Source: Octopus vulgaris (Eukaryota). From it: a DNA stretch of 64,000 nt. The notes beneath the pieces are model-generated. The model did no database searches. It worked only from the letters and a program-made list of their open reading frames with translations, and was not told the origin of the DNA. Positions within the stretch are counted from its first letter, which is position 1, and each line of letters opens with the position of its first letter. A program made the translations under genes and the position numbers. Location of the stretch: the NCBI GenBank assembly GCA_951406725.2, contig OX597823.1, forward strand, positions 69,812,001-69,876,000, in the 5' to 3' direction. Below are positions 237 to 47,346 of this stretch, in pieces.

Positions 237-815
237 AGCATTTCAAAACAGATTTTAATATAGGCGCAAGGTTTGAAATTTGTTTTATAGGTGAGTCATT
301 TCGATATCTTTATTGGGTGTATTTCATTTTTTTCGACCCCGAAAGGATGACAGGCAAAATTGATTTCGACTGGGACCAAATATTTTGGTAGATGAATATG
401 TGCGGGAGGGATTTGGAAGAAGAAAGGATATTGGGATTAGATTACTAATGAACTCCTGATGCACATGTAGAAGACACAGTAAAGCTCCACGAGGCTCCGG
501 CAGAGGGTGGAGGCGACCCCTGTTGTGCTCTTTCGCCACAGCTTTCTTTCATTCTCTCTTCCTGTTTCTTGAGTAACGCTGCGATGGACTAGCGTCCTGT
601 TCAGCTGGGGGAAACACATACGCCACAGAAACCGGGAAACCGGGCCCATGAGCCGGGCTAGGCTTGAAAAGGGTGACGGAGGAGGATAGGACAGCTCAAT
701 CAGGTTAGAGATAGTGCTAAGTACAATGCTTACACACAGTAATGACATAATTAACTTTGTCAAGGATTTGAACATTGCAAAGCGATTGGAAATAAAATGG
801 TGAGAAAACCAAATA

Positions 816-870
<55 letters not shown>

Positions 871-1120
871 CTAAAATTCGTTTCTTTGAAATCGAAGTGT
901 GGAAATAAATGTTTGATTCTGCTCGTGATATCGTCAATAGTAATTTAAAACAAGTGGGTGTTTTGTAATAATTATAAATCACGTATCGGTGTTAAAACAC
1001 CTTGATTTGCTTTGTACTACTTGGGTGGTTGCGGTGATGGTAGAGGGGTGGATATTTTTAATCAATGATTAGGTTTAACTGTTCTGCAAAACTGTTCTGC
1101 TTAACACTTCTCCACCTTAC

Positions 1121-1552
1121 CTGCCCTTGTTTGCACTACAGTATTCAGAGTGATGTGATCGTAACGATGATTGCTTCAGGCAGTAGAGATAGATACGGCT
1201 GTAGGGATGGTGGATGGTCGTCGTCTTTGTCGTCGGCGGCGGTGGCGTCGTGCTGCTGCTGATGATGATGATGGTGATTATGATGATGGTGCTGATGCTG
1301 ATGCTGATGCTGGTGGTATTGGTGATGATGATGCGATATGGGTGTTGGTATTGATCATCGCCGTCGTAATGATGGTGGTGATGGTGGGGAGGCGGGGTTG
1401 GTGGATTTTTTAGTGGTAGTGTTGGTGGTGGTGATGGATTATACTGGTAGTGATGGTGCAAGTTATCGTTGTATCGGATATTTGAGTCTATTGTAGGAGG
1501 AATCAATAAAGCTTTTTGGGAAGTCAGTTACTACGGCAAAAGCGCGATGGTC
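1121..1552 (-). other. Putative non-coding (UTR/lncRNA) exon
   Basis: Minus-strand acceptor ttcttgcttacctctcAG before 1552 and donor CAG|GTAAGG after 1121. The body is trinucleotide-rich and all three frames from the acceptor contain stops. Confidence 0.3.
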
Positions 1553-2122
1553 CTGAGAGGTAAGCAAGAACTTTTTGTAACACTCGTGGTGCTGGCAGAC
1601 ACATTGTCTTGTTGTTGTTGCTACTACAATTACTGCTGCTGCTGTCTTCTTCTTCTTCTTCTTCTTCTTCTTCTTCTTCTTCCAATCAGGACTCACGCCA
1701 TTAGCCACAAAAAATAATTTCTAATTCGAGCCTACTCTAAGCTACTAAGAATGCGTGTTGCAACTTGAAGATCCACCCACCACACGCGATAGACTGGCGG
1801 TTGCACGGGCGCGAAAGCTACGTTGTTATCCTCATTCCGTAAACAATGGCTTTTAACTGGTGGAGAGCTGAACCATCCCAGAGTACAGAGGATTCGCAAT
1901 CTAGACTAGGGTCTCTGCTTTGTAGCAAAAGTAAGAAGAAAGAGTGAGAGAAAGTTGTGGTGAAAGAGTACAACGAAGTTCATCCATCAAATCCCCGCCC
2001 CCACCGGAGCCTCGTGTAGCTTAGGTGTTCTTGCATAATAGGGTTTAACTTGAGGGCGATTTGATTGTTTCGAGCAAACCGAGCAATCACGAAAAAGCTC
2101 GCCTTATTGAATTTATAGATGA

Positions 2123-2351
2123 AGGCAGCGAGCTGGCAGAAACGTTAACGCGCCGGGTGAAATGCTTAGCAGTATTTCGTCTGTCGCTACGTTCTGAGTT
2201 CAAATTCTGCCGAGGTCGACTTTGCCTTTCATCCTTCGGGGTTGATAAATAAAGTACCAGTTACGCACTGGGGTCGATATAATCGACTTAATCCCTTTGT
2301 CTGCCCTTGTTTGTCCCCCCTATGTTTGGCCCCTTGTGGGCAATAAATAAA
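2123..2351 (+). mobile_element. tRNA-derived SINE, family A
   Basis: Head ggcagcgagctggcagaaacgtta, B-box-like gagttcaaattc, body gtcgactttgcctttcatccttcgggg. Many homologous copies in the window. Confidence 0.85.
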
Positions 2352-3624
2352 TATGAATTGATAGATAAGTTATTAAAGATGCTGCTATTCAGTTCTAGAT
2401 TAACTTCGAATTAATAGTTGTGAAGACTTACAGCTTTAGCAAAACCGGATTTTACAGTGATCAAACAGCTCCCTAATCATTGGCATTCCAGGCGTGACCA
2501 TCCTATCTTTTTGAATGTCTAAAACTACATCTTCCAATGTGTCATTCCTCTTGCTTTGCGTAAGATTTAAGAGAAAATATGCTACTATTTTTAGCACATC
2601 GTGTGAAGTCGTAGCAGTTCCTCTCCTTCGTTAACTCAATAGAGATGATGTTGAGGAGAGCGGTGATTACAGAGGCGATGGCGTTTAGAGGACGTCATTG
2701 GCCTTAGTGAAAGCGGCGATAAACCATATAGAATTGCGCCATTATTTGTATCTATTCTATTGTATTGTATTGTATCTATTCTATATGATACTAATAATGT
2801 AATACTAATATATGATGGATAGTATGATTACTATGACAACGGCAATAATAATGTAAATGGTTAATCATGCTTTAAAAAAATAATAAAACGAGGCCTATAT
2901 ATGATCTACATATATGTATGTCTCTTCTATGTTTTAATTATTATAAATTTTCCACTGAAGAGGGAGCCGGTTTTCAACAGAGAGACAAGGCTCTATCTTT
3001 GGGATGTAATTAACACAGACAAATTCACATTTAGAACTTGAGAAAAATCTTGCATATTTATGCTGTTCCACTCACAGATTGCATTTGTAATGTACGGGTA
3101 TGTATGTATGTATGTATGTATGTATGTATGTATGTATGTATGTATGTATGTATGTATGTATGTATGATTAATTGCAATTAGTACATCAGCAAACTATACT
3201 ATTAAAAATTAATAGTAGTTTAATTTGCGAATGCGCGATTCTTGTTCTCATGATATACAAGTTAAATTATTTTCTATATTCTGCTTCTAAGATGTTGTTC
3301 GACAAGTTAGAAATAGCAGTAAAATCTTCCCTAAATTTCCCCTATCCATTTAAATAAGAAAATAGAACCAAAGAACCTATGATTAAAGGCATGGTTGGTA
3401 TGCCTTCAGTCATGGGTTATCTCGATCAGGATTGATATGCGACAAATCAATAGCAATCATAAATTTACTGATCCAAATATATAGAGTGAATCAATGAAGG
3501 AGCCACAATTCAAGAAGATCAGTGCGCAATGTTCAGCTGTCAAAAATACAATACGAAAATTAGAGATAATTTGGGAAATACTTTTCGCTTCACAGTACTA
3601 TTTTCTAATACATAACTTAATTTA

Positions 3625-3838
3625 AGCGGGTAGCTGGCCGAATCGTTAGCACGCCGGACAAAATGCTTAGCAGGATTTCGTCCACCTTTATGTTCCGAGT
3701 TCAAATTCTGCCGAGGTTGGATTTGCCTTTCAACATTTCGTGATCAAGGAAATAAGTACAACTTGAGCACTAGGGTCGATGTAAGCGACCAGCCCCCACC
3801 CTCAAAACTTCAGGCTCTTGAATCTATGATAGAGAGGA
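3625..3838 (+). mobile_element. SINE family A (diverged)
   Basis: Homologous to 2123-2351 (gctggccgaatcgttagcacgccgg...gagttcaaattctgccgagg). Confidence 0.8.
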
Positions 3839-3894
3839 ATATATATAATTACGATTATGTAACTATTTTGAAAAACTTCTGATGTGAAATTGTG

Positions 3895-4278
3895 TGTTGA
3901 AACAAATATCGTTATATTTCGGGACGGTCATTTTTTCCCTTTTGTCAATTAAACACGCACTATATATTCGTTCTTCACTTCAGGTTGGTTATAGTTCCTA
4001 TTTTATGTCCTTTGTCTAGAAAGCTTTCGTCACACATTCGGTGACCTCTTCAGCCACACTCCATCCCGCGTGTCTTGTCCTATTCTGCTTAGTCCATCAG
4101 AACAAGAGAAGGCACGCAGGATGGAGAGTCGCTGAAGAGGTCACAGGCTGTGTGACGAAAGAATTCCAGACAAATGGCATAAAATCAGAACAATAATAAA
4201 TTTGAAGTGAAGAAAGAAGGGCGTGTTTATTTGTCAAAAAATGACCGTCCCAAAATATAACAATATATATCTAAACAA
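3895..4278. repeat. Fold-back (inverted-repeat) element with a hammerhead-like motif in each arm; Penelope pLTR-like
   Basis: Arms of about 190 bp are reverse-complementary around ~4090. CTGAAGA-g-gtcaca-ggctg-tgtgac-GAAA at 4132-4160 (+) and the equivalent at 4053-4025 (-). Confidence 0.75.
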
Positions 4279-5151
4279 CTTACATTTTGCGTTCTATCAA
4301 AAATCCATTTACATTTTTTGCTATATTATTGGAATATATATCAAACCCAGTTCTTGACAGTCATTATATTATCGATCTTGGAAGTAATAAATGCAAGGTT
4401 AATCTACCCAAGATTTCAACACAGGAGTTGCAGGAACCGTCACAAAACACAGCAAAGCATCCTTTTATTTGACGCTCTAACGATGTGCAAATCCAGTATG
4501 TAAACCTATTTCCATACATAAAGCACAAATGCTTATTTATATTTACCTACTCCAGTCAATCGAACCATAAATAATTTAATATATTGTTTCCCCTTACCAG
4601 TATAAATCGGTTACCCACCCTATTGATATTTTCGAAGAACCTGTGCTATCCATGCACGACAAGCATGTGAACTGAATCGATGCAATGTATAGCTACTTTC
4701 TCGAAAGAAAACATATTACTTGCATTGGATTGGAAGACATTATGCACGAGCAAATAGGTCTACGCTGCCTCTCACTCCCACCAGTGCGTTTTTATATACG
4801 TATATGAACACATCAGCTGGATATAGTGTTTGTTGTCGCCACAAGACATGCTCCCGTGCTAAACATACTACTCAGGGATAAAATATAAGCATACATACTG
4901 TAGACTATTTCTATGCACGTTATGACTTCTGCTTGACTTAATCTTTGCGCTCTGTATGCGTGTATAGTCAGATTTGCAAACAAATTATAACTAGATTAAA
5001 TTACGATACTGACAGATTTTTTCAGGAATAAGGAAAGCTTACTATCTCGAAGCATGTGCCACGCCGGTTAGCTAGTATACACTGTACACAGAATATATGA
5101 CCAGGCAAATATATATACATGTGTATGAGTGTGTATTTGGTGGGGTTCGTG

Positions 5152-15739: not shown

Positions 15740-18010
15740 TCACGTGATTAAGTATTTTCTTGGTCTCGGTCTTTACTTGAGCAAGTGTCAGTCTTTTCTT
15801 GGTTATATATTCGTCTTTTTTAAGTCTGATATTTGTACTTTCTTACTCTATTCTATGTCTTTTCTTTATCTCGTCTCGGCCTTTTCTTAATCTGTTCGAG
15901 CTTTTCCTTGGTCTTATCCCAACCTTTGTTAATCTAGTTTTTGTTGTTTCTTGGTCTAGTCTCGGCTGTTTCTCGTTCTCGTCGCGGCTTCTTCTTGGTT
16001 TAGTCTCAGTCTGATGATGGTAATCCCTCAAGGTCGAGGATGATGGTCTTCGCGCAAATTTACTGGTGAGTCCGTAGGCGACCGATAAGACCAATTCTTG
16101 CTTGAAAAGATCGGTCGCAGTGCGGACATCTAGTGCTGGAAGGGAGAGTCGCATGTGGTTGTTGTTGGCGCTCCTCCCGTCGTCGTCTTTTCTCCTCCAG
16201 CTCTGCAGACCTTTTCGACTCGAAAGTCGCCGTTCCCTCATGGATGGTGGTTTTCCAGAGTGGTCTGTTTTTTGCCGTTTCCTCCCAGTTAGTGAAGTCG
16301 ATGTCACACTTTTTGAGGTTCGTTTTCAGGGAGTCCTTGTAGCGTTTCTTCTGGCCTCCTTTTCTACGCTTGCTGTCTTTGAGTTGGGAGTAGAAGATCT
16401 GTTTGGGAAGTCGTTCGTCAGTCATTCTAACCACGTGGCCGTTCCATCTTAGTTGGCCTTTGCTGACATAGGCTTCGATGCTGGTCATTTTTGCTTCTTG
16501 TAGCACGCTGACGTTTGTTCTTCTGTCTTCCCAGCTGATGTTAAGGATCTCCCGAAGACAGCGTTGGTAACATTTCTCGAGCGTTTTCAGGTTGTGACTA
16601 TACGGGGTCCAGGTTTCGAATGGTTCACATTTTCCAATGGGATTCCTTCGAGTTGAATCGATGGCGGGTTGTCAACACGGGCATTGGGAGGAGGTTGGTA
16701 GAGTAAGTGAGTCTTCTTGATGTTGATGCTCAGTTCAAGTTTAGTATATACATGATGAAAAGCATTTAGGATCTGTTGGAGGTGATCCTCTCTGTAAGCT
16801 GCTACACTGTTGTCGTCGGCATATTGGAACTCTAGCAAGCTTCGCGCCTTTGTCTTTGACGTACTTTTGAGGCGAGCGAGGTTGAAAAGCTTGCCGTCCA
16901 TTCTGTACGAGATCTCGATGCCAGGTGGGAGGTCATCTCGTATGATGTGCAACACTGTCGCGATAAGGATGGTAAAGAGAGTTGGCGCTATCACGCAGCT
17001 ATGCTTCACTCCGGAGGTGACTTTAAAGGGCTCAGAACTGCCTCCGTCGGTCTGGACTCTGGCGTGCATATTGTCGTGGAGGAGTTTGAGGATCCGGATG
17101 AACTTATCTGGGCATCCATACTGGGCGAGAATATCCCAGAGGAGCTCTCGCGAGACACGATCAAAGGCTTTGGATAGGTCGATAAAGACCAAATACAGCG
17201 GTTGGTGTTGCTCACGACATTTTTCTTGTAGCTGTCGCAGCGTGAAGATCATGTCGGTTGTGCTTCGTGATGGCCTAAAGCCGGTCTGCGTCTCAGGAAG
17301 GATCCTCTCTGACAGCGTTTTGAGGCGGTTGTTCAGGATGCGTGCAGGAATCTTCCCAGCAGTTGCTAATAAGGAAATACCCCGGTAATTTCCACACTCG
17401 GATCGTTCTGAGTCTCAGTCTATCTTAGTGTAGTCTCGATTTTATTTTGATTTCGATCCCGGTCTCTTCTTGCTTATGCCTCCGTCTTTTTTTGGTCTGC
17501 TCTCTCTGTTGTCTTGGTCTGTTCTTAGTGTAGCTATGGTCCCGGACGTTTTTTGTCTTAACTCGGTTTTTTCCAGGGCTAACCGTAATGTGTGTTTCAG
17601 TCTCGTTTCGGTCTTTTCTTGGTCTTCTTTCTGTCTTTTTTCACCTGGTCTTAGTGTTTCTTCGATCTCCATCTTTACCTGATCAGGTTTTGGTGTTTCT
17701 TTTTTTTTTACTCTGGTATTGGTCATTTCTCGATCATGGTGTTTTCTTGATCTGGTCTAATTCTTTTCCTGGTCTTTATTGTTATCGGTCTTTTCTCAGT
17801 CTAGTGTCTGTCTCAGTCTTTTCTTGATTTCATCTCAATCTTTCGCTTTTTGGTCTCAATGAATTTTCGGTCTCTGTCTTTTCATCACGTGGTGGTTTTC
17901 GTTGTGGTTTTCATCTCGGCCTTTTCTCCGTACGGCATTAACCTCAGTCTCTTCGTTTGTATTCTATCCTCGTCTTTTCTTCGTTTTGGACTTCTTTGGA
18001 CTTCCCTTTC
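15740..18010. repeat. Degenerate pyrimidine-rich minisatellite (recurrent ttcttggtct/ctcggtct), split by an RTE insertion
   Basis: The same low-complexity motif runs on both sides of the LINE (15740-16012 and 17411-18010). Confidence 0.65.
16013..17410 (-). mobile_element. RTE-clade LINE, 5'-truncated with an internal deletion
   Basis: RT motifs NYRGISLL, GFRPSRSTTDMIFTLRQLQEKCREQ, FIDLSKAFDRV and QYADD; C-terminal RWNGHVVRMTDERLPKQ and CPHC..LRTH; deletion near 16620; 11-bp TSD AGTCTCAGTCT at 16002-16012 and 17411-17421. Confidence 0.95.
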
Positions 18011-19229
18011 GGTTTCTTTGTGATCTTAGTCTTTCCAGAATCGTTTAGCGGGTATCCTCTTTCTTTGAGTGAGGTGAATGTAACATTATCACACGGGCTA
18101 GTACAAATTAATCATAATTTTGGCGAGAGTCTAACAATAGATATTGAATTTCCCCTCGGTGAGACATAGGCGTTTCTATTTTTGCAAACTCGTGAAATTA
18201 AAATATTATTCTGAAATAAATTTCATACTAAAACCTATATATTAAATTAACACAAATTTAATGAGTCGAAAACATTTACATTTTATATTAAATTATTTAC
18301 TAATCAATATTTATAATATCATTGCAGAACAGCTTACCTTACATGAACAGACATAAAATACACAAAAACACGCAATATAATTATACTTATATGTATGTAT
18401 ACATATATGGCGGCGGTTGTTGTGCGTGTGTTTGGTGGTTGGCTTGGTTGGAAAGAGGCTGCGAATATGGAAATGTATTTTTCTTTAAAAATAATGTTAT
18501 TTACATCAAAGAAGTAAATACCATTAACTTACTAATCGTTATCATTACATAAAGACGAACTGTAAGCCTTCCATTATTTTGCTTTGTTCCACTATTTTCA
18601 GGATTCATATCAGACAATTTAGTCTTCCACTCCTCCAGGCTCGATAAAACTAAGCCAGCCGTATACATCAATATAATGTAAATGTCTCTAAATAACTCCT
18701 TGCTCTTTTAGTGTCCGGTGCATGACTTTAGTTCCAGAACATTAAACACATGAAAAATTTATCTTGTTAAATAGAGTACTGCTTTATTACAGGCAACATT
18801 CTCGCATAACCTAGAAAATATTGTTAACAAGTTAACAACGAATTATAAGGTTTATAAACAAAACAAAATGGCGGCAGAGGATTTCAACACGATAATTCGT
18901 CTTTGTATGGAGTAACATAAGTTCACTGTGGACCACTCCATTTGCTATTCCACGTCTAAAAATGTGTATGACTCTGTCGTGTATATGTACCTGTGATTCG
19001 AACGATGCTGCTGTCGCATATACTGTGGCACTGATTTTTCTTGAGTAACACGTTCAGATTGCACGTATATTAAATGTGTATGAATCTCCGTGTGTATACA
19101 TATATGTATTTTTATATGTGTATGTATGTGTGTGAGTGTGTGTGTGTGTATGTGTGTGTGTGTGAACCATAACATGTCACATTCTTAGGATTACGGCTGT
19201 TTCGCAGGCTTTATCATACATACATATAT

Positions 19230-19814
19230 ATATTAGTTATCGCCATACTAATATGGCATTCTTATAAAAATAAGAATAAAGCTGTTTGTGTATCAAATAG
19301 CTAATTTAAGGCGCTGGCCTCATGGAGCTAATAAGCGGTCAGCTTTATTCTTATTTTTATAAGAATGCCATATTAGTATGGCGATAACTAATATTTTCCG
19401 GGAACGCTGCCGTTGTTCTCTTTTAGAGAGACTTAGTAATTTTAATATTTCTATTATTGAAAACAAGTGGATGTATTCCACCGAAGCTAGGTAAATAAAA
19501 CCTTTGAACAGAGATTGTCGGAAGCGACACCTACTGGTTTGGCTACGCTGCATTGAAAAGGGGCAATACCCTGAAACGCGTCTGTAGCTGCCGGGCAAGT
19601 AGTGTGGAGCGACTGACCTCCCTTGTTCAAAGGTTATATGGATACAGTTTGTGTATCAAATAGCTAACTTAAGGCGATGGCCTCATGGAGCTAATAAGCG
19701 GTCAGCTTTATGCTTATTTTTATAAGAATGCCATATTAGTATGGCGATAACTAATATTTTCCGGGAACGCTGCCGTTGTTCTCTTTTAGAGAGACTTAGT
19801 AATTTTAATATTTC

Positions 19815-19820
<6 letters not shown>
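19230..19820 (+). mobile_element. Non-autonomous Penelope-like/retrozyme-like element (inverted plus direct repeats, hammerhead)
   Basis: Direct repeats 19284-19457 and 19647-19820 (363-bp period), 55-bp inverted copy 19230-19284, hammerhead 19547-19588, TA-rich flanks. Confidence 0.8.
19547..19588 (+). ncRNA. Minimal type I hammerhead, U3-A8 variant
   Basis: gctgca TTGAAAA gggg-caata-ccct GAAAC gc GTC tgtagc; stems I, II and III all pair. Confidence 0.75.
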
Positions 19821-19866
<46 letters not shown>

Positions 19867-20119
19867 TGGTTCTCTAAAGTCTCTTCCTTCCGTTCTAACC
19901 TGATCAATTGTCTCGCAGGAGTTAAAATACTTCGGAAAGGAGTGAAATGGCCGATTATATAATACATTAGACTGACAGTTCATAACTTCTATATAGTTAC
20001 GTCACCCTCAGCTTACTCCTGATCAAAAGCGTCTAAGCCGTTACTAATCACGGACCTAACAAACTAAGAGTATATTATTCGAACTGTTCTCCTTTTTCCA
20101 ATCTTTATGTCATAAACTT

Positions 20120-20340
20120 TCAGTGTCCCGGGATTTTATTGTGTCATGAGATGAAAGTGTGTTGCGAGAGTTTAGTGTCTCAAGATTATTGTGCGTTACG
20201 AGATCTTAGCGTGTCACGAGACTTTAGTGATTTTCGTTAGCAGGGAAATTTTAAAGCGTATCACAATATTTTGGTGTGTTCCGGTATCATATTGCTCTAT
20301 GATAAATTATATTGATGTATCGTAAAATTTTCCGAGATCA
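20120..20340. repeat. Degenerate ~18-bp tandem repeat
   Basis: Recurrent variants of ttttagtgtgtcacgaga. Confidence 0.55.
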
Positions 20341-20626
20341 AAATAATATATTTCTGATTAAACATCGATTTCCAACTTTTACTGATAATGCTTACTGTCA
20401 TATACGTTAAATGAAACGTGTCGAGTAGAATATATTCTATTGAATAGATTACATTAAGTAGAATGCATTGAACAGAATACTTTACCCTGCATTCATGCTA
20501 GATGATTTTATTTTTTATTTAAATAATATAATTGTGGCAAATTGTGTTATTTTTGAGATGCAAAAAATATTCTTTTCTACTCTATGCACAAAACCCGAAA
20601 TTTTTGAGGATGGAGCTAGTCGATCA

Positions 20627-21520
20627 GATCGACCCCAGTACGCAATTGGTACTTAATTTACCGACCCCGAAAGGATGAAAGGCAAAGTCGACCCCGGCGG
20701 AATTTGAACTCAGAACGTAGCGGCAGACGAAATACCTATTTCTTTACTACCCACAAGGTTCTAATCACAGAGGGGACAAACAAGGACAGACAAACGGATT
20801 AAGTCGATTATATCGACCTCAATGCGTAACTGGTACTTAATTTACCGACCCCGAAAGGATGAAAGGCAAAGTCGACCCCGGCGGAATTTGAACTCAGAAC
20901 GTAGCGGCAGACGAAATACCTATTTCTTTACTACCCACAAGGTTCTAATCACAGAGGGGACAAACAAGGACAGACAAACGGATTAAGTCGATTATATCGA
21001 CCTCAATGCGTAACTGGTACTTAATTTATCGACCCCGAAAGGATGAAAGGCAAAGTCGACTTCGGCGGAATTTGAACTCAGAACGTAGAGGCAGACGAAA
21101 TACCTATTTCTTTACTACCCACAAGGTTCTAATCACAGAGGGGACAAACGAGGACAGACAAACGGATTAAGTCGATTATATCGACCCCAGTGCGTAACTG
21201 GTACTTAATTTATCGACCCCAAACGGATGAAAGGCAAAGTCGACCTCGACGGAAATTGAACACAGAACACAAAGACAGACGAAATACCTATTTCTTTATT
21301 ACCCACAAGGGGCTAAACACAGAGGGGACAAACAAGGACAAACATAGGTATTAAGTCGATTACATCGACCCCAGTGCGTAACTGGTACTTAATTTATCGA
21401 CCCCGAAAGGATGAAAGGCAAAGTCGACCTCGGCGGAATTTGAACTCAGAACGTAACGACAGACGAAATACGGCTACGCATTTCGCCCGGCGTGCTAACG
21501 TTCCTGCTAGCTAGCCGCCT
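20627..21520 (-). mobile_element. SINE family A with a 184-bp internal segment tandemly amplified about 5 times
   Basis: Unit starts at 20631, 20815, 20999, 21183 and 21367; a single tRNA-like head ends at 21520. Confidence 0.9.
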
Positions 21521-21645
21521 TGAGATGCATAAATATTTTGACATCTAAAGAGGAAAGCATTGCAAGTATCATTTGAGCGGGGTGGTTGCTAAAAAAATAT
21601 GCATATGTATACATACATACATACATACATACATACATACATACA

Positions 21646-32832: not shown

Positions 32833-32886
<54 letters not shown>

Positions 32887-33057
32887 CATAAATAGAAACC
32901 TTATTATTTCTAAATCTCTCTAAGAGAAATATTCAGTAACACTTCTTTAAAGTGAAGACTATTTGCAAACATAATGTCCAATCAGGACAGCCACATTATG
33001 TCGGCAAAAAGTCTTTATTATATATATATACATACATATGTGTGTGTATGTGCGTGC

Positions 33058-46340: not shown

Positions 46341-46563
46341 TAATATAGGATAAAATTTTTCGAAAAGTTTTTTATCAATGCCCAGCATATTAAAAAATAC
46401 CTTTAAAGGTTAAATTTATAAACAACTTATAAACAAGGGTAAAATAAAAAAATTCTAATGCCAAATATGCCGAATTTAGACAAATTATCAATAACAATAT
46501 AATTTATCACTATAAACACGCGTCTTGAAGTAAGCCGACAGAAATTTCTAAAAAATTCCATTA

Positions 46564-46624
46564 TTATCGTATCGGTCCCAATTTCAGAGTAAATTCATAA
46601 GAATTTTCTCCTCGTCAGCGATAA
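46564..46624 (-). ncRNA. Type I hammerhead, canonical core
   Basis: ttatcg CTGACGA ggag-a-aaattc-ttat-gaattt-a-ctct GAAA ttgg-ga-ccga TA cgataa. Confidence 0.8.
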
Positions 46625-47346
46625 ATACGTAAGACCTAAATGAAACACTTACTCATACCCATGGAAGAAGCAAACACTAAGTCATGAGCAGACCTAAGTA
46701 AATATCCCAAACTGACATTAATTCGTTAGTTCACTGTATTCAATATATTCAGTTTTTGGAAAATGTTTGTCAAACTGTCTTTCTGTCTGTCTTTCTTTTT
46801 TATGTCGTCTCTCTTTATGCTTTTTACTAAATTGTTCATAAAATAGAAAACTTTTCAATTAACCATACTCTCCTTCCAACATTTTAGTTTTGGACAATTT
46901 TGAGATTTTATTTTAGTATTTTATTTATTTCTGCAAGTCCAAGTAACAACAGGGGATTTATTTTGATATCAACGGTATCAATAGCGATGCCCTGGTTCTA
47001 CACTACTTACCGGTGCTGTGGTAGAATAGTCACTAAGTAAATATAAACATTAGAGTAGAAAAATAGGATGTCTACGAGACACCATCGGAATGGATTGTCG
47101 CCATCTATTGTATTAATTCATTGTAAATTCCTATTAGTGTCATTTCAAATAGACACGAGGACAATATATATTTCAGGGCGAATAACGAAAGAGAGTATTC
47201 TGACGTTCAAGTCTTAGTTAAGGAATTATACGAAATAGCTTCAAGTGGAAATCGATCCTAGTGGAGACTCACTGCACGCTTATCGCTACTCTTCATTGCT
47301 TGTTACACCGTCTTGCTACATCCTACTGTTGAGGACATATATATAT

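Follow-up and report, generated by a model that had tools for sequence, protein, structure and literature searches.

Introduction

The mobile elements closest to the locus described here are the non-LTR retrozymes of animals, which were defined by Cervera and de la Pena (2020; PMC7229834) and shown in that study to form circular RNAs and to cleave as dimers; Penelope-like elements (PLEs) were named in the same work as a strong candidate for mobilizing them. Retrozymes were also linked to pLTRs in a preprint (bioRxiv 10.64898/2026.07.22.740005) that, in its accessible part, reports cleavage in one of nine dimers and calls tandem copies "active" only if they contain two or more complete hammerheads. 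Arguments about what moves retrozymes in animals still draw on co-occurrence and on the similarity of pLTRs (PMC7229834; bioRxiv 10.64898/2026.07.22.740005). PLE insertions themselves are described as partial tandems or pLTRs accompanied by 5' inverted truncated copies and one-sided tails of 30-40 bp, and the Naiad PLEs are reported to prefer (TA)n targets (PMC8557442). In Anolis, the PLE nicks AT-rich DNA, its reverse transcriptase (RT) has two internal start sites, which delimit the tail, and the ribozyme cleavage is protein-assisted and dispensable for insertion in vitro (PMC11167929).

The hammerhead core discussed below, in which the 3-8 pair is U-A, has its own literature. Natural U3-A8 covariation was reported in several hammerheads (Perreault, 2011; PMC3088659), a study that credits the earlier finding of in vitro U3-A8 activity to Przybilski and Hammann (2007). 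Moreover, a dedicated descriptor returned about 1,300 U3-A8 matches among the Cercyon PLE hammerheads of Schistosoma mansoni, and UUGAAAA cores are listed in the supplement of that paper (Cervera and De la Pena, 2014; PMC4209133). Among cephalopods, PLEs are reported to make up 6.83% of the Octopus vulgaris genome, with 31 recently active PLE families (PMC13282606), the supplement of which mentions neither "hammerhead" nor "ribozyme", and 235 Rfam hammerhead-1 loci were counted in the giant squid (PMC6962438). A literature search that left aside most subscription papers, Repbase, Dfam and some supplements returned no paper on an octopus retrozyme.

The element that we analyzed spans positions 19230-19820 of a 64-kb stretch of octopus DNA (the window, i.e., the whole of the sequence under analysis), and its 363-bp unit resembles in size those of metazoan non-LTR retrozymes (350-390 bp in Mytilus, 331/353 bp in axolotl; PMC7229834). 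Like them, it has no ORF, a GC content below 50%, one type I hammerhead per unit, a highly self-paired predicted circle that exposes the ribozyme, a weak palindromic helix III and an abundance on the scale of thousands, deduced in our case from sequencing depth; these properties agree with the description of a retrozyme unit as 150-450 bp long, non-coding, low in GC, self-paired and equipped with a type I hammerhead. It differs from them in its U3-A8 core, which the accessible part of PMC7229834 does not mention for retrozymes, and in being a dispersed copy of 1.48 units with a PLE-type inversion and tail in (TA)n, in what is likely a cephalopod host. With the Cercyon hammerheads (PMC4209133) it has in common the U3-A8 covariation, the UUGAAAA heptamer, the PLE context and the dimer logic. 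The Cercyon ribozymes, however, are described as minimal and heterogeneous, with a long stem II, a short stem I and an extra base between positions 9 and 10.1, and as tied to ORF-bearing or truncated PLEs, whereas the octopus ribozyme has canonical 6-bp and 4-bp stems with a bulge and a loop and sits in a homogeneous ORF-less unit.

Results

The forward insert of the element is 537 bp long. It consists of a first direct repeat (19284-19457, plus strand; unit positions 1-174), a single-copy, ribozyme-bearing part without any Pfam-matching ORF (19458-19646, plus strand; unit positions 175-363) and a second direct repeat (19647-19820, plus strand), which stops at the main 3' end of the family (unit position 174), as seen from loose ends at the equivalent position 19457. 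The 174-bp repeats are identical at 171 of 174 positions, the three mismatches being 19305/19668, 19314/19677 and 19349/19712. They are preceded by a 5' inverted arm (19230-19284, minus strand; unit positions 111 to 57), which matches the reverse complement of 19340-19394 without a single mismatch (55/55) and agrees with the second-repeat segment 19703-19757 at 54 of 55 positions; base 19284 is common to the arm and the forward copy, and the outer end of the arm, ATAT, merges into the (AT)n flank. Since the arm begins at unit position 111, a PLE-like tail of 63 bp (19758-19820, plus strand) extends past the inverted-repeat boundary on one side only. The (CATA)n/(AT)n microsatellite on the left (19214-19229) is likely the left half of the insertion target, and the (TA)n on the right (19821-19864) is likely the target site, (AT)n being found behind the 3' end in other copies as well. 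Collectively, the 363-bp period with near-identical repeats, the perfect inverted copy and the Penelope-type geometry that an earlier note had read from this DNA were all confirmed, the last by the repeats, the arm and the one-sided tail.

The partial tandem, the 5' inverted truncated copy and the one-sided tail are thereby those of the insertions of Anolis Poseidon PAc (PMC11167929) and of Naiad and Chlamys elements (PMC8557442), and the AT-rich or (TA)n target and the RNA-internal 3' end downstream of the hammerhead are likewise shared with PLE insertions (PMC11167929; PMC8557442). Unlike the latter, the octopus element carries no RT/GIY-YIG ORF, and its tail measures 63 bp rather than 30-40 bp (PMC8557442). 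It also resembles Chlamys MRC1, a non-autonomous, pLTR-forming element whose head-to-tail insertions are attributed to PLE machinery; MRC1 is green-algal, and its clade, like the Naiads, is described in the accessible part of that paper as devoid of canonical hammerheads, unlike the octopus element (PMC8557442).

With a rate of 0.0036 per site per Myr, as quoted in PMC13282606, and on the assumption that the repeats were identical when inserted, the three differences in 174 positions place the insertion at about 2 Myr (roughly 0.5-7), in line with the young age proposed for it before. An assembly artefact was rejected, as the repeats differ at three sites and the junction types are common to other copies. 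No second intact copy is present in the 64-kb window. A 45-bp match of 80% to the 3' tail region of the element was noticed at 32884-32927 (minus strand, E 2e-4) beside (TA)n, and it is possibly, judging by its sequence, an old truncated copy.

When the unit is taken as a circle, it has no stop-free frame longer than 51 aa on the plus strand. Its longest frame (111 aa, minus strand, across the ribozyme) has no Pfam match, and a protein search with it gave three candidates, none at E<=0.01. No ORF with RT and GIY-YIG domains lies in or beside the element, and an autonomous PLE, which would carry a telomerase-like RT/GIY-YIG endonuclease ORF, was therefore rejected. The neighborhood contains a broken LINE-like RT fragment in two frames (16060-17414, minus strand), about 2 kb from the element; its part at 16590-17414 matches PF00078, with 89% identity to Octopus sinensis as the best match, which makes an Octopus the likely host, and 76% to a mantis shrimp as the next one; this high identity across phyla could, from the sequences compared, reflect horizontal transfer. 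On the other side, about five head-to-tail copies of a 184-bp unit occupy 20618-21540, with four 300-nt register matches of 89-100% and a divergence that increases along the array. This 184-bp unit presumably resembles a SINE of octopus genomes.

The predicted ribozyme is a type I hammerhead on the plus strand (19541-19592), with an outer stem I (19541-43/19590-92), a UAC bulge (19544-46) and an inner stem I (19547-52/19583-88), i.e., 6 bp plus three further pairs beyond the bulge. The core UUGAAAA (19553-19559) places U3 at 19553, N7 at 19557 and A8 at 19558; it is followed by a 4-bp stem II (19560-19563/19569-19572) with the loop CAAUA, by GAAA (19573-19576) and by the palindrome ACGCGU (19576-19581), a minimal helix III through which, by prediction, the two hammerheads of a dimer would pair with each other. 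In hammerhead numbering, self-cleavage is predicted after C17 (19582), between 19582 and 19583. All these features lie on the plus strand, as does a long rod hairpin (19500-19634) predicted to show the hammerhead at its tip. The UAC bulge and the CAAUA loop presumably make the usual tertiary contact, as in the Schistosoma ribozyme. The positions expected of a type I core are all present, namely a Watson-Crick 3-8 pair, U4 G5 A6, A9, G12 A13 A14, A15.1-U16.1 and H17, and the 3-8 pair is U-A, a natural variant already in print. When both strands of the window were scanned with a strict descriptor, which required a core with C3-G8 or U3-A8, at least 4 bp in stem II, at least 6 bp in stem I and a short stem III, it matched once, and it never matched in 300 composition-matched null windows, so that the hammerhead with a UUGAAAA core and a 6-bp stem I, as proposed earlier, stands as the sole strict match. 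A relaxed descriptor also matched at about 46560-46625 (46618) on the minus strand (CUGACGA core, 18-nt loop II), which fails the strict descriptor and is probably a chance hit.

Of the 13 Rfam matches at E<=10 within 18000-21000, none belongs to a hammerhead family. This miss is expected, because the core is a variant and helix III is minimal, and it does not lower the ribozyme-like reading; the miRNA and snoRNA matches are far under the gathering scores and were rejected, inverted repeats and microsatellites accounting for them. In folding predictions, z was -6.3 for the region 19500-19640 and -6.0 (linear) or -6.3 (circular) for the 363-nt unit, while the ribozyme alone folded weakly relative to shuffles (z = -0.6 for 19538-19600 and -2.0 for 19547-19589). 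Helix III had a predicted pairing probability of 0.000 in the monomer. The cofold of two copies, on the other hand, gave a double-hammerhead arrangement through the palindrome at -43.5 kcal/mol vs. 2 x -18.3, and in silico modeling thus favors the dimer fold suggested in the earlier note.

Of 23 public sequencing runs listed, 20, from four organisms and ten studies, contain part of the stretch. We analyzed the family in the contigs of four runs (X1, X3, X7, and X15; at most four samples and three studies), with a likeness cut-off of 80% and a variant threshold of 2%, i.e., among contigs within 80% identity of the element. Family contigs were matched in all four runs (4602, 2003, 1220, and 588), which corresponds to the multicopy character of a non-LTR retrozyme (588-4602 contigs per run). 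The summed depth at 19584-19605 reached 2,529 to 11,209 times that of the adjacent flank bin, which is not a copy number; the depth suggests that the family comprises thousands of genomic copies.

None of the 40 variants listed (of 52) falls on U3 (19553) or A8 (19558), at a nearby depth of 33,000-600,000. According to change-type counts, the T>C places at or above 2% are all accounted for elsewhere in X1, X3, and X7, with one unlisted in X15, and the A>G places are all accounted for in X7, with two, two and one unlisted in X1, X3, and X15, respectively. Among the positions of the core heptamer only N7 (19557) has a listed variant (A>C, 3-12%). U3-A8 is therefore the family state among contigs within 80% identity, common to the family rather than private to this copy; a CUGANGA family consensus was not seen among these contigs, and private decay of such a consensus was rejected. 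A C3-G8 sister family may exist below this identity. The earlier note had called U3-A8 a selected variant rather than decay; this is only partly shown, because a founder effect can also fix a pair in a family that is young. That the 12 core sites have no listed variant is not significant alone, since a rate of about 33 variable places in 651 bases would put about 0.6 of them there. As a novel natural variant, U3-A8 did not hold up, having been reported in PMC3088659 and PMC4209133.

Variation in the rod and around the core may reflect structural constraint. At the predicted partners 19505 and 19629, the changes T>C and A>G, respectively, reach matching shares in the four runs (73.5/73.8, 80.5/90.1, 91.8/93.2, and 100/98.3%), so that this rod pair covaries from U-A to C-G across the family contigs, as judged from shares and not from single-molecule linkage. 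Likewise, 19542 G>A together with 19591 C>T restores a pair, and the near-core variation (19550, 19557, 19570, 19572, and 19591) lies on N7 or keeps pairs. Eight of ten variable rod pairs are kept (p = 5e-5 vs. random changes, about 0.12 vs. a transition-biased null); rod pairs are broken by 19503 T>A (47-68%) and by 19595, and in the repeat part, predicted hairpins are disrupted by three of the variants listed.

The copy in the window departs from its family at 19572 (stem II position 11.1), where it has U and about 99% of the depth has C in all four runs. Stem II, described previously as GGGG/CCCU, is accordingly real in this copy, but its closing U is private: the R10.1-Y11.1 closing pair is G10.1-C11.1 in the family (about 99%) and G-U here. 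U11.1 is predicted to slip stem II onto A9, with a probability of 0.87 vs. 0.11 for the active register. Further near-private bases are 19595 and 19712, and a depth drop over 19305 and 19314 suggests that these are private as well. Having a single hammerhead in its 1.48 units, the locus cannot release a 363-nt circle by double cleavage, and the idea that it is by itself the source of such a circle was rejected; in the terms of bioRxiv 10.64898/2026.07.22.740005, as far as its accessible part defines them, it is a "monomer" derivative. Because of the single hammerhead and the predicted misregister of stem II, this copy is likely impaired and a dead end.

Loose ends of other copies show (AT)n behind 19457 (unit position 174) in at least 40 contigs of X1 and behind 19454 (unit position 171) in at least 14; X7 adds at least 14 contigs with such ends. 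Since these ends read (AT)n, other copies have a fixed 3' end abutting (AT)n, 238 nt downstream of the predicted cut site; the family copies hence share with PLE-type insertions both a fixed internal 3' end and an AT-rich/microsatellite target. One X1 contig ends at unit position 114 beside a microsatellite, and at least two clean opposite-strand joints occur in other copies. In another X1 contig, of depth 56.9, (AT)n passes into the element at 19583, just past the predicted cut site, which gives a hint of a cut-site start, the chance of one such case among 10-14 junctions being 8-11%; no pile-up of copies starting at this site appears among the loose ends listed. Both unit junctions are deeply covered, in collapsed contigs that cannot show multimers. 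At least nine shorter joints in other copies lead from the inverted arm, where they end at unit positions 56-69 (19272-19285) beside a predicted helix, into other unit positions. These ends may mark a preferred stop of inverted cDNA, with the sides of the joints being 23-33 nt, the region quasi-palindromic and short joints unreliable, and our reading does not draw on their clustering. Loose ends in all four runs (at least 18-26 contigs per run before 19417) also reveal a diverged subfamily over 19388-19417 and from 19700 onward. Both repeats and the arm have subfamily alleles in common, namely A at 19347/19710 and at 19391/19754, two places that vary within the family. Such sharing would fit a single circle as template as well as a homogeneous multimer, and it does not separate the two.

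Discussion

We conclude that the locus is probably a 1.48-unit insertion of a high-copy, ORF-less 363-nt family with a family-wide U3-A8 type I hammerhead, that is, a non-autonomous non-LTR retrozyme likely copied by a PLE. Of the two names that had been offered for it, retrozyme or pLTR, the evidence favors the one that goes with an ORF-less 363-nt unit. In the mechanism that we propose, tandem source copies would be transcribed, two hammerheads would come together by way of the ACGCGU palindrome and cleave after C17, and the unit-length RNAs would be ligated into 363-nt circles. A PLE endonuclease would then nick (TA)n DNA, and the PLE RT would start inside the RNA at unit position 174 and go round the template beyond a full unit; the other target strand would prime a second start near position 111-114, giving the inverted arm and the 63-bp tail.

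The alternative that deserves most attention keeps the PLE and dispenses with the ribozyme: the family may be a satellite-like derivative of a PLE terminal repeat, copied by a PLE from uncut tandem transcripts or at the DNA level, with a vestigial hammerhead and a founder-fixed U3-A8. The insert reads across the predicted cut site, which an uncut multimer accounts for as well as a circle does, the invariance of the core is in itself not significant, eight of nine tested Xenopus retrozyme dimers were inactive (bioRxiv 10.64898/2026.07.22.740005), and the Anolis PLE can insert in vitro without cleavage (PMC11167929). A vestigial ribozyme, however, sits poorly with near-core variation that falls on N7 or keeps pairs, with a family that has kept G10.1-C11.1 and has a covarying rod pair, and with the one contig that starts at the predicted cut site, and we consider this explanation unlikely. 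More improbable still is that the locus is what remains, as a terminal pLTR, of an autonomous PLE truncated at its 5' end and that most of the depth stems from pLTRs of ORF-bearing elements. The geometry is indeed PLE-typical, the same UUGAAAA heptamer with U3-A8 occurs in S. mansoni Cercyon PLE hammerheads (PMC4209133), and 370 loose ends lie beyond those listed; yet the period is merely 363 bp, contigs deeply cover the passage from the 3' end back into the unit (19457/19458), the loose ends listed there read (AT)n and not coding sequence, neither an ORF nor a Pfam match turned up, and the hammerhead is of the canonical 6-bp/4-bp and not of the minimal PLE type.

Least credible, to the point that we give it hardly any weight, is a SINE-like element moved by a LINE (e.g., RTE), its inversion being due to twin priming. 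An RT-bearing LINE-like fragment does lie 2 kb away, and microsatellites are favored by some LINEs. Twin priming leaves an inverted piece upstream of the forward piece, with no overlap. In the octopus element, in contrast, the inverted piece and the forward copy overlap, and a tail is left on one side only, as in PLEs (PMC8557442), and a length of more than one unit combined with a type I hammerhead is a PLE/retrozyme trait.

Beyond the preferred reading of a PLE-copied retrozyme, we raise, tentatively and with more doubt than confidence, the possibility that this young, abundant cephalopod family records the reverse transcription, by a PLE and over more than one unit, of ribozyme-made circles, with occasional copies starting at the cut site, two fixed internal starts (unit positions 174 and about 111-114), 5' inversions and a preference for (TA)n targets. 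If this were true, it would be direct genomic proof that animal retrozymes are mobilized by PLEs, and a canonical hammerhead with a fixed U3-A8 pair would cleave in vivo. The question of the mover becomes directly testable, in one genome and in vitro, with a family that is young, present in high copy and equipped with PLE insertion hallmarks and defined ends. The surprise is limited in that both the chemistry of the U3-A8 pair and its natural occurrence were known before. Scans that use Rfam or CUGANGA only can overlook a whole high-copy ribozyme family.

Hammerhead pattern scans gave no matches in the viral_contigs or genome_contigs sets and 31 in metagenome_contigs, none of which belongs to the octopus family or is a structured U3-A8 hammerhead. 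Two of the 31 are structured C3-G8 type I hammerheads, found in low-GC metagenome contigs (L003:185-214 and L031:140-169), and both share with the octopus element its CAAUA loop and a helix III that is minimal and palindromic.
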